Positions 2,206 through 32,876 of a stretch of 64,000 bases of DNA are shown here, piece by piece. Position numbers and translations under genes: made by a program. Position 1 is the stretch's first letter; every line of letters begins with the position of its first letter. This stretch comes from Candidatus Micrarchaeota archaeon (lineage in GTDB: Archaea; B1Sed10-29; B47-G15): contig QMVG01000005.1 of the NCBI GenBank assembly GCA_003660975.1, positions 1 to 64,000 on the forward strand, given 5' to 3'. The notes under the pieces are model-generated. The model was not told the origin of the DNA, searched no databases, and saw only the letters and a program-made list of their open reading frames with translations.

Positions 2206-3699
2206 ATGTTGAAGCATTTGAAAAAGATTTTGAGAAAGAATGGCCGTAGTGTAAAGACTAAAAAAAGCCAGGAAGGGAAGGGTATGAAGAAGAAAACTGT
2301 AAAAAAATCCGAAAAGAAGAAAACAAAAACAAAAGCTGTTAAAGCAAGAAAAAAGAGCAAAACTTCTAAGAAAACAGTTAAGAAAAAAGCTGTTAAGACT
2401 TCTACGAAGAAAACTGTAAAGAAGGTGGTAAAGCGTGCAAGAGGTCGGAAGAGTGTTAAGCGTCAGAGGAAAAAACCTAGTTCTTCTAAGAGGGACAAAA
2501 GCCCTAAAAGAAGGGACAAAACTGTACGACGACCAGCAAAATCAAGTAGGCGTGGTAAAAGAAGTTCTAGGACCCACAAGAGCACCCTACATGTTAGCAA
2601 GAGTAAAGCACCCAAAGAAGCTCTTGGGCAAAAAGTTATACCATTAGAAAGTGAGGCCAAGAAAAAAGAGGAAACTGCGATTGAGATATTGGCAAAGGAG
2701 ACAGTTGCAGAACCCCTAATATCTGAGTCTATTGAAGAATCCATGAAAGAGGAGGCTTTGCCTGTTCCAAAAAGTCCGGAAGCAAAACCCAGCAAAACAA
2801 TAAAGTGTCCTGAATGCGGGTCAACTGATGTTTCAATAGACTATGAGAGAGGAGAGGTTGTTTGCAACAGGTGTGGTTTGGTTATCGAGGAGAACCTTGT
2901 TGACTCTGGCCCTGAATGGAGGGCTTTTGATTCAGACCAAAGGGATAAGAGAGCAAGAACAGGGGCTCCTGTGAAGTTTACAAAGCCAAACAAAGGGCTT
3001 GCCACTGAAATAGACCAGTACAACAGAGACATAAGAGGTGTTAAGATAAGCTCCCAGCAGAGGAGCCATATGTACAGGTTGAGGAAATGGCATAAGCGAA
3101 CATCAATATCCTCCTCAATGGAGAGAAACTTGGCGATTGCCCTGTCAGAGCTTGACAGGATTGCCTCTTACTCAGGCCTCCCTCAGAACGTGAGAGAAGC
3201 AGCAGCCTTGCTATATAGAAAAGCGGTTGAGAAGGGGCTGATAAGGGGCAGGCTTATAGAGAGCGTTGTGGCTGCAGTGATATATACTGTTTGCAGGCAG
3301 TACGGTATTCCGAGGACCTTGGACGAGATCTCTGCTGTTAGTGGAATAAACAAGAAGGAGATAGGAAGGACTTACAGGTTTTTGAAGAGAGACTTGGGAA
3401 TAAAGATGCCTTTAACTGACCCAACGCATTATATTCCAAGGTTTGCAAGTGAGCTAGGTCTGTCAGGCCCTGTGCAGGAAAAGGCCAGAGCTTTGCTTAA
3501 GGAAGCCATAGACAAGGGTCTGATTTCTGGAAGAGGGCCAACAGGCGTGGCAGCAGCTGCAGTTTACATAGCAGGAGTTCTTATGGGTGAGAGGAGAACA
3601 CAAAAAGAAGTGGCAGATGTAGCAGGCGTAACAGAAGTTACCATAAGAAACCGCTACAGGGAGCTAAAGGACAGGTTAGGTCTGGATGTGCCTGCCTAA
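2206..3699 (+). CDS. tfb: transcription initiation factor IIB with ~190-aa basic/acidic N-terminal extension
   Basis: Zn ribbon CPECGS...CNRCG, B-reader GPEWRAF, two cyclin repeats, C-terminal [18 protein letters not shown] at 2195-2200 precedes ATG 2206. A shorter alternative start is ATG 2743. Confidence 0.95.
2435..2647 (+). CDS. gar1: H/ACA RNP subunit Gar1, nested in the +1 frame inside tfb
   Basis: [10 protein letters not shown]...[26 protein letters not shown] matches the archaeal Gar1 pattern (G-x-V-x-D/E-V-x-GP-x-x-x-PY). SD GAAGGTGG precedes the GTG. gar1-tfb is a conserved archaeal gene pair. Confidence 0.88.
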
Positions 3700-26696: not shown

Positions 26697-27338
26697 ATGA
26701 AATACATTTTAGGCATTGATGAGGCTGGAAGAGGGCCGGTTGTAGGACCCATGGTAATAGCAGGAGTACTGCTTGAAAAAGCTTCTGAAAGAAAGTTAAA
26801 ACGTCTTGGGGTTAGGGATTCAAAGATGCTCAGCCCTGCGAGAAGAAGAGAGCTTAGGAAAAAAATATTGGACGAAGCTGTTGAATTCCATTGCATAAGC
26901 ATTAGCCCTCACAGGATTGACAGTAGGAAGGTTTCTCTTAATGAATTAGAGGCCCAGGTAATTGCTGAACTATTGAAAAAGTTTAGGCACAGAATTGACC
27001 ACATCTATATTGACTTGCCAGACCCCAGCGCAGAGTCTTTTATCAACAGAATCAAGAAATACATTGACGTAAAAAGTAAAATAACAGCAGAGCACAAGGC
27101 AGACCTCAAATACCCTGTTGTGGGTGCTGCTTCTATAATTGCAAAGACAGAGAGAGATAAGAGAATAAAGGAATATGAAAAAAAGTATGGGAAGATTGGA
27201 AGTGGTTATCCTTCAGACCCGCGAACAATAAAATTTTTAAAAAAGAACATAAATTTACCCATAATAAGAAAGTCGTGGAGCACTACTCAAAGACTAAAGG
27301 AAAAAGGCAGGCAACGTAAGATAGAAGATTGGTTTTAG
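26697..27338 (+). CDS. rnhB: ribonuclease HII
   Basis: GIDEAGRGPVVGP, DSK, HKAD, AASIIAK, GSGYPSDP. Confidence 0.97.
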   Translation: MKYILGIDEAGRGPVVGPMVIAGVLLEKASERKLKRLGVRDSKMLSPARRRELRKKILDEAVEFHCISISPHRIDSRKVSLNELEAQVIAELLKKFRHRIDHIYIDLPDPSAESFINRIKKYIDVKSKITAEHKADLKYPVVGAASIIAKTERDKRIKEYEKKYGKIGSGYPSDPRTIKFLKKNINLPIIRKSWSTTQRLKEKGRQRKIEDWF

Positions 27339-27792: not shown

Positions 27793-29442
27793 TCAGTACT
27801 CCATACCCATGCCGCCTTGCGGTCCGCCTGTTTCTGGTGCTGAGCTCTTCTTTGAAGCAGCAATGATGTCGTCTATCTTCAGTATCATGTTCGCTGCCTC
27901 AGCTGCTGATGAAATGGCCTGACTTTTAACTTTAGCTGGCTCTATGACATCTATCTTGGACATATCTCCTATGTCTGCTTTGTCTATGAAGACTCCTATA
28001 TTTTTGTTTCCCTTTGCGTGTTCTGAACGCAGCTTTACTAGTGTGTCTATTGGGTCCATACCTGCGCTTTCAGCAAGGGTTCTTGGTATTATCTCAAGGG
28101 ACTCAGCAAATGCCTCTATTGCAAGTTGTTCCCTGCCTCCTATTTTCTTTGCATAATCTCTTAATTTCACTGCAAGTGCTGTTTCAATAGCTCCTCCTCC
28201 ATAGACAATCTTTCCCATTTCTATTGCAGATATGGCAGCTCCTATTGCGTCATTAACTGCTCTCTCTGCTTCATCTACAACGTGCTGGGTGCCTCCTCTT
28301 ATTAATATTGTCACTGCCTTTGGGTCATTGCAGCCTTCAACAAATGTCATAGCTTCTCCTGCTATCTTCTTTTCTTCAACACTTTTCGCATAACCAAGGT
28401 CATCCTTGCTCAAATCGTTAACACTGGAGCTTATCTTTGCCCCAGTTGCCTTGGCCAACTTGTCCATATCGCTCTTCTTAACCCTACGAACAGCGAATAT
28501 GCCTGCTTTTGCTAGATAGTGCTGGGCAATGTCATCTATTCCTTTCTGGCAGAAAAGCACGTTTGCTCCGCTTTCCACTATCTTGTCAACCATTTCCTTT
28601 AGCATTTTTTCTTCCTGTTCTATAAAGAGCTGTAGTTGCTCTGGAGAGGTTATGTTTATTTCAGCATCTGTTTCTGTCTTCTTAACCTCAAGTGCTGCGT
28701 CTAGCAGCGCAATCTTTGCATTTTCCACTTTCCTCGGCATGCCTGAATGGACTCTTTCCTTGTCAATTACTATGCCTTTTATGAGCTCTGAATCCTCAAG
28801 GTTGCCTCCCTGCTTCTTTTCTATTTTTATATAGTCCTGATTTATTGTTATGCTGTCTTTGCTTTCCTCAGCGACTTGCTTAACTGCATCCACTATTATC
28901 TTTGCCAATTTTTCCTTGCTTTTGCCTATTGTCCCTTTGCTCGCCATTGTTGTCATACAGACCTTTACGAGTTTCTTTTCATCCTTTATATCTATTGGAT
29001 CAGATATTTCGTTAAGCAGGTCAATTGCCTTTTCCTGGGCCATTGTGTATCCCTTGATTATTATTGTTGGGTGAATCTCCTGGTCCAACAGGTTTTCAGC
29101 ATGCTTAAGCAACTCCCCTGCTATTACCACTGCTGTTGTTGTTCCGTCTCCTGTTTCCTCATCTTGTGTTTTTGCAACCTCTACAAGCATCTTTCCTGCT
29201 GGATGCTCTATATTCATTTCATCCAGAATGGTTGCTCCGTCATTTGTTATTGTTATGTCTCCTATCTCATCTACAAGCATTTTGTCCATGCCTTTTGGTC
29301 CCAAAGTTGACCTAACAGCATTTGCAACTGCTTTTGCAACCATTATGTTAATTCTCTGGGCATCTCTCCCAATAACACGAGAACTGCCTTCTGGAAGAAC
29401 AACTATTGGTTGTCCTGACAGCTGACCTCCTACTCCTGTCAT
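27793..29442 (-). CDS. ths: thermosome subunit (group II chaperonin)
   Basis: [28 protein letters not shown]-type tail. Confidence 0.98.
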
Positions 29443-29483
29443 TTACATCACTCTCCTTTACAGTAAACATAAAAAATAAGGTT

Positions 29484-29918
29484 TCATTCAATATTGACCT
29501 TAAAGCCAGATGGCTTTTCTCTCGGCTCTTTCTTGTAAAGCGTTATTTGAAGGACTCCATTTTTCAGCGAAGCCTTGGTTTTCTCTGGGATCACCTCTGC
29601 TGGTAGCGTCATTGCTCTCCTAAAAGCCGAGCTGCTTCTCTCCCTATGGTAATATCCCTTCTCTGACTTTTCAAATCCCTCAGACCTCTTTGCATTTATA
29701 ACAATGTAGTTTGGCTCTACCTCTATGTCTATGTCGTCCTTTTCAATGCCTGGCATGTCTGCTATTACTTTGATTGTATCTCCCTCATCTATGAGGTCCA
29801 CTGCTGGTTGCTGGAAGTTCACTGACGGCAGTGGTCCTGACAGTTCTTTTTCCATCCTCTCAAAGACCTTATCCATCTCTTTTCTTATCCTCTCAAAGTC
29901 ACTTAAGAAATCTATCAT
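29484..29918 (-). CDS. hsp20: small heat shock protein Hsp20
   Basis: Alpha-crystallin domain (ADMPGIEK, YYHRER, ASLKNGVL), IxI-like VNIE tail. Start placed at ATG 29918 after SD GGAGGTGA. Confidence 0.95.
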   Translation of the reverse strand: MIDFLSDFERIRKEMDKVFERMEKELSGPLPSVNFQQPAVDLIDEGDTIKVIADMPGIEKDDIDIEVEPNYIVINAKRSEGFEKSEKGYYHRERSSSAFRRAMTLPAEVIPEKTKASLKNGVLQITLYKKEPREKPSGFKVNIE

Positions 29919-29925
29919 AGGCATC

Positions 29926-29958
29926 ACCTCCTCCACATTTTTTCAAATGTGGGAAGGT
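29926..29958 (-). promoter_or_regulatory. 5'UTR hairpin sequestering the hsp20 Shine-Dalgarno (candidate RNA thermometer)
   Basis: mRNA ACCUUCCCACAUUU-GAAA-AAAUGUGGAGGAGGU: 14 pairs (1 G-U), 1 bulged A, GAAA tetraloop. Confidence 0.65.
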
Positions 29959-29983
29959 TTTTCATATAAAATATACAATATAT

Positions 29984-30014
29984 TAAGTGGACATCCACTT
30001 ATATAAAGCTTTCG
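29984..30014 (-). promoter_or_regulatory. hsp20-ths promoter (BRE-TATA) with overlapping palindromic operator
   Basis: Minus strand reads CGAAAGC-TTTATATA, overlapped and followed by TAAGTGGA-TG-TCCACTTA. Confidence 0.7.
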
Positions 30015-30072
30015 ATTTTGATGGGCATTCACTTAAATTGAAAGATTTTTATACTTTGCATTAGTAAGTTTA

Positions 30073-31350
30073 GTGATGATGAGAGCTATAAGCAAGAAAA
30101 GGCTCGACAGAATTGACGACCTTGTTTCTTTTTTGAACCAGCATAAAGATGGGCTTAGATACGACCTTCTCAACAACTTTGCAAGGAGGCATGGCGTTTC
30201 ATACGAAGTGGTTAAGCGAGATGCATTGTTACTTGCCTATGCCACTATACCTTCACATAGGGGATATAACCTAAAATATGTGCCAAAGGAATACAGAAAA
30301 GAGGTTAGATGGCTATGGAAGGAGATTTTTGGGATACGCGGGGGCAAAAAGAAAATGGACAGAGCAGCTGCGTGGAGAGCCTCTCATGTCTTTCTTGAGC
30401 ACACTCCTTATATGGATTTAGAGAGGGTTAAAAGGGAGTTTGACTTGAAGCAGATGCTTGGTGGCGAATTTTACCAAAAAAACATAGATTGGCTGTCCGA
30501 AGAGGAAGCGCAGATCCATGAGATGCAGAGGGAGATGGCAAGAGAGTTAAAGAAAATTTCGGAAGAGAGCAAGGCCGAACTTGAAGAGCATATGGTGAGA
30601 AAGTACAGCGATGCTTGGCTAGTAATGGGGCGCAAGATTCACAAGGAACTGGCAGAGCTTAAGAAAGCAAAGGAGAGGGGTGCTTTCAGAGATGAGATAG
30701 AGTACCTACAAGCCATAAAAGACATATGGAGAGCAAACCTATATGAGGTAAAAGCAAGCAAAGATTATGAAGCATTTAGGACTAATTTGTTAAAAGCTTT
30801 GAGAAAGGAGTTCAAGATTCAGCACAAAGCTGTTGTCAAGAAAGGGGCAAATCCAAAAAAACAGAGCACACCTCTTTCTTCCCTGTTTTTTAAAGCACTT
30901 AGAGAAACGCCTTTTCCCAAAGAAGCCAAATATGATGAAGAAGCTAGAAAAATGTGGCTTACAAAACTGAATCAAAATTTTGAGAAACTTAAAAGGCAGT
31001 CATTAAAGGAAATTGTGCTAAAGGGAAAAAGCAAGATTGACAGCAGGGAGAGGTTATTTAAGGATATGAAGTTTATGATGAGAAGGTATAGACCAGGAAA
31101 GAAAGGGAACATACCTGTCCACATGTCAGACCAAATAAGAGTGTTGGCTGAAGCGTATGCTGAAAATCCAAAGAAATTGCTGTCTTCTCTTTCCTCTGTG
31201 CCAAAAGACAATTTCTTCAAGCTGATAGTCAAGGAAGGGATGAAAATAAGCGAAGCAGATTATTATTATAACAGAGCGATGAGAGTCAGGAGCAGAATTC
31301 CTGTAAAGACATTGTTGCCTCGTTCAATAAGAAAAGGTAGAAGGCATTAG
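30073..31350 (+). CDS. orphan K/E/R-rich helical protein
   Basis: 425-aa ORF with basic N- and C-termini; no family recognised. Confidence 0.75.
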   Translation: MMMRAISKKRLDRIDDLVSFLNQHKDGLRYDLLNNFARRHGVSYEVVKRDALLLAYATIPSHRGYNLKYVPKEYRKEVRWLWKEIFGIRGGKKKMDRAAAWRASHVFLEHTPYMDLERVKREFDLKQMLGGEFYQKNIDWLSEEEAQIHEMQREMARELKKISEESKAELEEHMVRKYSDAWLVMGRKIHKELAELKKAKERGAFRDEIEYLQAIKDIWRANLYEVKASKDYEAFRTNLLKALRKEFKIQHKAVVKKGANPKKQSTPLSSLFFKALRETPFPKEAKYDEEARKMWLTKLNQNFEKLKRQSLKEIVLKGKSKIDSRERLFKDMKFMMRRYRPGKKGNIPVHMSDQIRVLAEAYAENPKKLLSSLSSVPKDNFFKLIVKEGMKISEADYYYNRAMRVRSRIPVKTLLPRSIRKGRRH

Positions 31351-32366: not shown

Positions 32367-32876
32367 TCAGGCTCCCAAAAGCTCTGCTATCTTTCTCCCG
32401 AAATCCCTGGCAGCGTCAGGACCATTTCCTGTGATTATTTTGCCATCTACCTCAACACCCTTTCCAGTGTACACAGCACCTAACTCTTCAAGCTTAGACC
32501 TAACTGAAGGCCAAGCCGTGACCTTTCTTCCAGAAAGCAGGCCAGCATTTCCCAGTATTACAGGAGCTATGCAGATAGCTGCAAGCACTTTGCCTGTTTC
32601 GTGGGCCTTTCTGGCAATCTCCAGGGCTTCTTTGTCTGTAAAGTACTGGGCAGCTCCTGGACCTCCCACAAAAACAACTGCATCATAATCATCTACCTGC
32701 AGTTCTGAAAGTTCAAATTCCGCCTCTGCCTTTGCCCCTAATTTACCTGTTCTTATGCCTCTTTGCTTTGAGGCTATTTTGACAGAAAAGCCGGCCTTTT
32801 CCAGTTCCTCTTTTGTGTGGAAAAGCTCTTCGTCCCTAAAGTTTTCAGGAGCTATAATCATCAGCACAGTTTTCAT
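32367..32876 (-). CDS. DJ-1/PfpI family protein
   Basis: FRDEE, VFVGGPGA, AAICIAP (catalytic Cys), IITGNGP. Confidence 0.92.
   Translation of the reverse strand: MKTVLMIIAPENFRDEELFHTKEELEKAGFSVKIASKQRGIRTGKLGAKAEAEFELSELQVDDYDAVVFVGGPGAAQYFTDKEALEIARKAHETGKVLAAICIAPVILGNAGLLSGRKVTAWPSVRSKLEELGAVYTGKGVEVDGKIITGNGPDAARDFGRKIAELLGA

Follow-up and report, generated by a model that had tools for sequence, protein, structure and literature searches.

ROSE and fourU elements lie in the 5′ untranslated region of heat-shock genes, where imperfect pairing covers the Shine-Dalgarno (SD) sequence and the SD helix carries non-canonical features; ROSE elements have the anti-SD motif U(U/C)GCU with a bulged G, and fourU elements a run of four U. 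The thermometers of cyanobacterial small heat-shock protein (sHSP) genes (Synechocystis hsp17, avashort, avalong and T. elongatus hspA) are described as single hairpins with near-perfect canonical SD pairing and a weakening internal bulge (PMC4152365). Functional bacterial sHSP thermometers are reported there to have predicted folding energies of -5.5 to -25.1 kcal/mol (PMC4152365), and the version from a thermophilic cyanobacterium is reported to block the ribosome site below 55 °C (PMC4152365, PMC3074152). For archaea, two sources name Phr (Pyrococcus/Thermococcus) and HSR1 (Archaeoglobus) as the only characterised heat-shock regulators, both of which repress an sHSP gene by binding a promoter palindrome (PMC10746257, PMC10653856). 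A designed SD-masking thermometer conferred temperature-dependent translation on a shift from 30 to 40 °C in the mesophilic methanogen Methanosarcina mazei, and the same 2024 paper says that RNA thermometers had not been employed in archaea previously (PMC11549558). Here we examine a window of 64,000 nucleotides (positions 1 to 64,000 of contig QMVG01000005.1, assembly GCA_003660975.1) from a Candidatus Micrarchaeota archaeon, in which the leader of an hsp20 gene folds into a hairpin that pairs the gene's own SD sequence. A preliminary description of this window knew of no characterised archaeal equivalent, and our own search of full-text literature, in a library of limited coverage, likewise turned up no natural RNA thermometer from an archaeon.

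The hairpin occupies positions 29926..29958 of the minus strand, where the sequence from 29958 to 29926 is ACCUUC-CCACAUUU-GAAA-AAAUGUGG-A-GGAGGU. Its minimum free energy (MFE) structure contains 14 pairs in two helices. The lower helix has six pairs (29958-29953 with 29926-29931), including the wobble U29954-G29930, and the upper helix has eight (29952-29945 with 29933-29940); a single bulged adenine, A29932, lies between them on the SD side. The upper helix is a perfect 8-bp inverted repeat, CCACAUUU/AAAUGUGG (29933..29952), that flanks a GAAA tetraloop at 29944-29941 and is unique in the genome. The 5′ arm of the lower helix, ACCUUC (29953..29958), is one C-to-U change away from the 16S anti-SD sequence ACCUCC, and the wobble exists because of this change. 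The stem ends at 29926, which leaves seven nucleotides (29925-29919) before the AUG at 29918.

Folded alone with ViennaRNA, the 33-nt hairpin has an energy of -17.9 kcal/mol at 37 °C, and the same structure is returned in a 76-nt context (MFE -21.0 kcal/mol). Two hundred dinucleotide shuffles gave a mean of -10.2 with a standard deviation of 2.5, placing the fold in the 76-nt context at z = -4.29, and 0 of the 200 were as stable. GGAGGU is paired in both the MFE and the centroid structures of the hsp20 leader. A weak outer A-U helix (29969-29963 with 29921-29915, thus spanning 29915..29969) also pairs the hsp20 AUG, with a pairing of 0.85 at 37 °C. The GAAA tetraloop is a feature of RNA, and the G-U pair makes sense RNA the form in which the extension of the hairpin pairs best, ahead of DNA and of antisense RNA. 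The preliminary description had drawn the same 14-pair stem with its GAAA loop, had put the G-U pair and the bulged A in the SD helix, and had ended the stem 7 nt ahead of the AUG; the refolding reproduced each of these exactly. A reading of the stem, together with TTTTT on the plus strand, as a plus-strand terminator was rejected: the nearest upstream plus-strand gene ends at 27338, and to our knowledge archaeal termination does not need a hairpin.

The gene behind the hairpin encodes an Hsp20/alpha-crystallin protein (PF00011, E = 2.4e-22) of 144 amino acids, read from AUG 29918 (coding sequence 29484..29918, minus strand). An in-frame AUG at 29924 would give 146 amino acids, and this longer form is an entry in the protein database. 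The N-termini of homologues (M-x-D-P-F/L-x-D-F-E-E) align with a start at 29918, and in one relative, L012, the counterpart of the upstream AUG, within GGAGGUGAUG, is out of frame. Both candidate starts rely on the GGAGG within the 3′ arm of the hairpin. The 16S rRNA of this genome, whose gene is split across the ends of contigs C5 and C3, has the 3′ end GAUCACCUCCU, and GGAGGUGAU (29923..29931, minus strand) is therefore a perfect 9-nt SD sequence. Six of its nine bases (GGAGGU) lie within the hairpin and GAU is single-stranded. A short upstream reading frame of 13 codons (29924..29965, minus strand; MKNLPTFEKMWRR and a stop) spans the hairpin and ends in a UGA that overlaps AUG 29924 as UGAUG; it is probably fortuitous.

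We asked how often an SD sequence is locked in this way in the genome. The candidate set comprised 883 start codons from the whole assembly, each combining an SD-like match (5 nt or longer) with an open reading frame (ORF) of at least 80 codons; only 6 of them have a 9-nt SD match. For every start we computed the SD opening cost, the free energy spent in releasing the SD sequence from its pairs, over the interval from -60 to +15. Opening the hsp20 SD costs 10.1 kcal/mol at 37 °C against a genome median of 2.9, in line with the earlier claim that this SD is sequestered. By this measure hsp20 ranks 14th of 883 in the assembly, 6th of 592 on the low-GC contigs and first among the 190 leaders with a GC content of at most 0.36. 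The next two leaders in that last group stand at 8.4 and 7.1 kcal/mol, and the former belongs to a doubtful 89-amino-acid TTG start.

Pfam searches on six higher- or near-ranked locks gave only mid-profile matches for three (GH57, Topo VI-B and SPP), which look like internal false starts, and no match for two; the lock of a KH-domain protein may belong to a genuine start. Other top-ranked locks sit on GC-rich contigs, possibly those of another organism. Across the assembly, 77 of the 130 contigs (363 kb) have a GC content of at least 0.46, with an IVYWREL fraction of 0.428 vs 0.41 and bacterial-looking tRNA clusters (C108, C109), and the genome bin may be mixed despite a low contamination score. 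The other strong locks that were identified (GH57, KH-domain, Topo VI-B, SPP, DUF2070, Rpb7-like, radical SAM and TFB) show no enrichment for stress genes, and several of these candidates are internal false starts. A further anti-SD/SD lock, ACCUCC ... GGAGGUGA with an ATG 6 nt on, was seen in the same assembly on the minus strand of contig C25 (positions 10-40, locus L067), ahead of a gene that is cut by the contig end.

The closest likeness of the hsp20 hairpin is to the cyanobacterial thermometers, which likewise sit on a small heat-shock gene and combine a single hairpin, near-perfect canonical SD pairing and an internal bulge; its folding energy also falls within the range of the functional bacterial examples. 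It differs in its archaeal host, its longer stem of 14 pairs and its predicted half-melting near 87 °C. We regard the likeness to the hsp17 type as an analogy of architecture alone and claim no homology. With ROSE and fourU the hairpin shares the imperfect pairing over a heat-shock SD and the non-canonical features of the SD helix, and it differs from both in its anti-SD arm, ACCUUC, and in its bulge, which is an A on the SD side. A search against Rfam (cmscan, E <= 10) returned eight rows, all far below their gathering scores and none of them ROSE or fourU. None was a thermoregulator on the sense strand; the only such match, Lig_thermometer, lies on the opposite strand and reaches 17.1 bits where the gathering score is 51.5.

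A hairpin of this kind can act on translation only if it is transcribed, and we therefore modelled the promoters of the genome. A 16-nt matrix was refined by expectation-maximisation on 196 sites from 757 upstream regions, with hsp20 excluded; its seed was AAA-NN-TTTATATA, so that it is not wholly independent of the hsp20 promoter. Upstream of start codons without an SD, boxes composed of an AAA-type B recognition element (BRE) and a TATA-like sequence show a sharp peak at a distance of 28-30 nt (50 of 361 sites fall in this bin). Such a peak is the signature of leaderless mRNA and therefore sets the distance from the box to the transcription start site (TSS); the tRNA genes show the same AAAGC/AAACG-TTTWWAWA arrangement. 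Upstream of hsp20, the BRE/TATA sequence GAAAGC TTTATATA AG (29998..30013, minus strand; W-box at 30007..30000), that is GAAAGCTTTATATAAG read from 30013 to 29998, scores 15.06 bits, whereas the 95th percentile of the best score per gene is 11.3. When we scored 1,940,470 positions on the low-GC contigs, only 4 reached 15.06 bits or more.

Counting 28-30 nt from the start of the W-box, as in the leaderless genes, we infer a TSS at 29977..29979 on the minus strand, where base A29979 is preceded by T; the preliminary description had expected it at 29975-29980. With this start the whole hairpin would lie within a leader of about 60 nt, beginning some 20 nt into it. A second, weak TATA-like box, TTTTATATG (29963..29971, minus strand), has no BRE and scores 1.9 bits, a value matched or beaten at 32,534 of the 1,940,470 positions, or about 1 in 60. 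Its predicted start, near 29940, is in the hairpin loop, and the resulting 22-nt leader would have the length more typical in this genome. On the strength of the promoter model, the hairpin is quite probably part of the transcript.

Between the TATA box and the predicted TSS of hsp20 lies a perfect palindrome, TAAGTGGA-TG-TCCACTTA, with two 8-nt halves and a 2-nt spacer (29984..30001, minus strand; about -23 to -6 from the predicted TSS). From its sequence and position it looks like a repressor operator. A degenerate copy (82%) stands 34 bp upstream, at 30022..30038 (minus strand), beside a divergent promoter, and allowing up to 3 mismatches at specified positions we found no other copy in the genome of either this palindrome or that of the hairpin. 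The operators of Phr and HSR1 also belong to sHSP promoters, and the hsp20 palindrome resembles them in layout. Three distant archaeal hsp20 homologues (L013, L037 and L039) have a palindrome in common, AGTTACTACTGGTAAC, between TATA box and SD, which may be a Phr-type operator.

We tentatively favor a reading in which the hsp20 leader hairpin occludes the SD and this block eases gradually with temperature, as a layer on top of operator control; we put it at a little short of an even chance. Transcription would begin about 20 nt 5′ of the hairpin, at a promoter that ranks among the strongest in the genome. As the leader emerged it would fold, and the anti-SD mimic ACCUUC would bind the GGAGGU of the ribosome site, keeping the archaeal 30S subunit from it and so restraining hsp20 translation. 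Because the SD helix is the weaker one, with its G-U pair, its flanking bulged A and the free GAU, the block would relax progressively with heat in vivo, in the manner of a zipper-type thermosensor and not of an on/off switch. This translational layer would be added to the probable repressor operator at the hsp20 promoter. The stronger proposition, that the locus is a natural archaeal RNA thermometer made of a bulged hairpin with an altered anti-SD copy in series with a repressor operator, is possible and on the doubtful side.

Folding predictions bear on this reading in both directions. The mean pairing of the lower helix falls from 0.93 at 70 °C through 0.75 at 80 °C to 0.57 at 85 °C, and the upper helix melts about 5 °C later (0.75 paired at 85 °C). 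The computed fraction of open SD, 4.9e-6 at 50 °C, climbs about 300-fold to 1.5e-3 at 70 °C, and for the weak outer A-U helix over the AUG the predicted opening falls between 50 and 65 °C. In silico, SD pairing of the wild type drops under 0.5 at 94 °C. Without the bulge this point moves to 102 °C, with G-C in place of the G-U pair to 103 °C, and with the two changes combined to 110 °C (+16 °C). The bulge and the wobble therefore do weaken the lock. The net energy of the 9-bp SD:anti-SD duplex minus the opening cost is favorable throughout the computed temperatures (-5.9 to -0.9 kcal/mol), with values of -5.9 at 37 °C and -3.2 at 70 °C; since the duplex outweighs the cost of opening, the lock would throttle initiation and not abolish it. 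Refolding across temperatures had been proposed in the preliminary description as a check, and its outcome is divided: the SD helix melts before the upper one, as a thermosensor would have it, and it also stays more than 90% paired up to 70 °C.

Several findings weigh against thermosensing. The SD helix is predicted to reach its midpoint at about 87 °C. With the helix still 0.93 paired at 70 °C, outright melting is not to be expected in the likely physiological range. For the long ORFs of the low-GC contigs the IVYWREL fraction is 0.409-0.412; by the relation Topt = 937F - 335, which has a root-mean-square error of 8.9 °C (PMC1769408), this composition suggests a growth optimum of 48-51 °C, subject to that same error. 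The 16S GC content of 56-57% points the same way, as does the absence of any reverse gyrase above the cut-off in an assembly that is 89.7% complete; the best match, at 188 bits against a cut-off of 471.7, covers the topoisomerase part only. The mean GC content of the tRNAs is 0.64. DNA runs that contain the stretch are labelled as sediment, seawater and hydrothermal vent metagenomes, and the host is probably a reduced, moderately thermophilic archaeon of vent and sediment samples. The objection that the hairpin is too stable is weakened on two counts: the folding parameters assume 1 M salt, and functional sHSP thermometers from cyanobacteria, at predicted energies of -11.4 and -25.1 kcal/mol, are reported to respond at 30-42 °C (PMC4152365).

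The comparison with relatives adds to these doubts. The organism is the sole member of its family among the species genomes examined (18 in its order and 31 in its class), and its closest hsp20 relative is 49% identical. A metagenome scan yielded 14 hsp20 loci at 24-41% identity, and a search of 5.8 billion proteins at E <= 1e-20 returned, from 13 candidates, only the hsp20 protein itself. We examined 32 homologue loci, 19 of them from genomes and 13 from metagenome contigs, after dropping L018 and L041, whose matches lie at the contig start and leave no upstream sequence, and the weak matches L022-L030. One of the 32 lacks an SD-led start; the scored homologues have 24-49% protein identity, and none of their 31 leaders has a comparable lock, opening energies being 0.3-5.4 kcal/mol and so near the median of 2.9 for this genome. 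The pairing in orthologous leaders, which the preliminary description had named as a check, was thus not recovered in any homologue, all of them at or below 49% protein identity. Three loci (L011, L012 and L014) have the same 9-nt SD, GGAGGUGAU, and no such hairpin, so that the strong SD does not serve to compensate for the lock. One of them, L011, from the same order, has a 5-pair CCUUC/GGAGG pairing that is probably upstream of its own TSS.

Searching the 31 class genomes for the pattern ACCTYC-N8-30-GGAGGTGA gave 7 matches against 9 for a reversed control and hence no enrichment; none of the 6 matches outside hsp20 precedes an ORF of at least 50 amino acids within 12 nt, one of them being cut by a contig end. 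No comparable hairpin accompanies the genome's second sHSP-like gene. Contigs from four other DNA runs, compared with positions 29480-30120, include two pieces that cross the hairpin and are identical there: piece 29926-30120 has no other letters and piece 29701-29972 has two, with one listed difference, at 29769, outside the hairpin. The hairpin is invariant across those runs and so offers no variation for a covariation test. With relatives this distant, these sequence comparisons neither demonstrate conservation nor rule it out. Two further points belong on the same side. The operator-like palindrome might alone explain heat induction, and with it at the promoter transcriptional heat control is at least as likely; and the eight sequencing runs listed for the stretch include no RNA run, which is uninformative either way.

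A lock that is tight at growth temperature could equally serve as a constitutive damper that lowers hsp20 translation at all physiological temperatures without sensing, and could in this way decouple the two cistrons, the strong promoter driving the thermosome high while Hsp20 stays low, with heat induction left to the operator alone and protection of the 5′ end as a possible extra. The SD helix is more than 92% paired up to 70 °C against an optimum near 50 °C, and the net SD:anti-SD energy stays favorable under the lock, both as this account would have it. The thermosome gene (27793..29442, minus strand), which starts 41 nt downstream of hsp20 and confirms with the PF00011 match the earlier placement of the hairpin on an sHSP gene beside a thermosome, has an SD-like GGAGAGUGAU of its own, and the best promoter upstream of it scores just 2.1 bits vs 15.06 for hsp20. 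Against the damper, a T6 run 8 nt past the hsp20 stop (29471..29476, minus strand), which resembles an archaeal terminator, points to separate transcripts; the spacer (29443-29483, minus strand) holds this run, the SD-like GGAGAGUGAU and no promoter match above 2.1 bits, and a common transcript for hsp20 and the thermosome is possible. Moreover, every SD hairpin is thermodynamically temperature-dependent, and the bulge and the G-U pair fall precisely within the SD helix, which is also where known thermometers have such features. We consider a purely constitutive damper rather unlikely. If instead ribosomes on the 13-codon frame (AUG 29965 to UGA 29926-29924) unwound the hairpin and reinitiated at AUG 29924, hsp20 output would track translation of the upstream frame and not direct access to the SD. 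The frame does span the entire hairpin, its UGAUG overlap involves an in-frame hsp20 AUG, and the 146-amino-acid form from AUG 29924 is the one in the protein database. AUG 29965, however, has no SD, and the predicted 5′ end is some 13 nt away from it; the UGA simply belongs to the SD GGAGGUGAU, the homologue N-termini align at 29918, and by a rough estimate such a frame would occur by chance about once in ten cases. We give this coupling hardly any credence.

The hairpin sequence might also be a feature of the DNA, or lie outside the transcript, if transcription started inside or after it, for instance near 29940 with a leader of about 22 nt; in that case the 8-bp palindrome would either be bound by a protein, perhaps the factor that binds the upstream palindrome, or have no role. 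In SD-led genes of this genome the W-box is commonly 49-60 nt before the start codon, and the weak TATA box is at 52-53 nt; in same-order relatives where hsp20 has its own promoter, the leader is just 8-13 nt or so long; and the 3′ arm with its bulge, AATGTGGA, matches the operator half-site TAAGTGGA at 6 of 8 positions. Yet the half-sites are everted and not inverted, neither palindrome recurs in the genome even at up to 3 mismatches, and the 6-pair extension over the SD needs a G-U pair and so fits RNA only. The weak box, at 1.9 bits and with 32,534 of 1,940,470 positions as good, also competes poorly with an upstream BRE/TATA among the best 4, and we judge this explanation distinctly unlikely. 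Finally, the structure could be a product of chance with no selected role, a view that gains from its being a single locus whose conservation is not shown and from the roughly 1.6% of candidate starts that have an equal or larger SD opening energy. Its z of -4.3, with none of 200 shuffles as stable, and its first rank among 190 AT-rich leaders, on the sole gene class with known locks of this kind, make chance highly unlikely in our estimation. The gradual thermal easing of an SD lock under operator control is the reading that we carry forward on this balance.

The surroundings of the promoter offer a candidate partner for the palindromes. A divergent orphan gene of 424 amino acids (30076..31350, plus strand) has its own BRE/TATA at 30040-30055 (11.3 bits). 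The TSS predicted from this box coincides with the ATG of the gene, which would therefore be leaderless. Its product has no Pfam domain at E <= 5, no homologue in the database of 5.8 billion proteins, and no usable match in the ESM Atlas (TM <= 0.27) or among PDB sequences. Elsewhere in the window, a TFB-like ORF of 497 amino acids (2206-3696, plus strand) has a TFIIB zinc ribbon that starts only at residue 200, and it has either a long N-terminal extension or a start called too far upstream.

Archaeal heat-shock control is known at the level of transcription only (Phr, HSR1), and in crenarchaea studies are reported to indicate an unexplained post-transcriptional control of sHSPs (PMC10653856). 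At present the value of the hsp20 hairpin is that of a well-defined candidate for such a mechanism, at one locus in an uncultured lineage. If hsp20 and the thermosome gene were co-transcribed, the hairpin would uncouple the output of Hsp20 from that of the thermosome, and, if the reading we favor is also true, it would be a device for translating two chaperones at differing rates. It would then also provide a compact, testable part for thermophile genetics, and the simplest bacterial temperature sensor would be seen to work on archaeal ribosomes as well.

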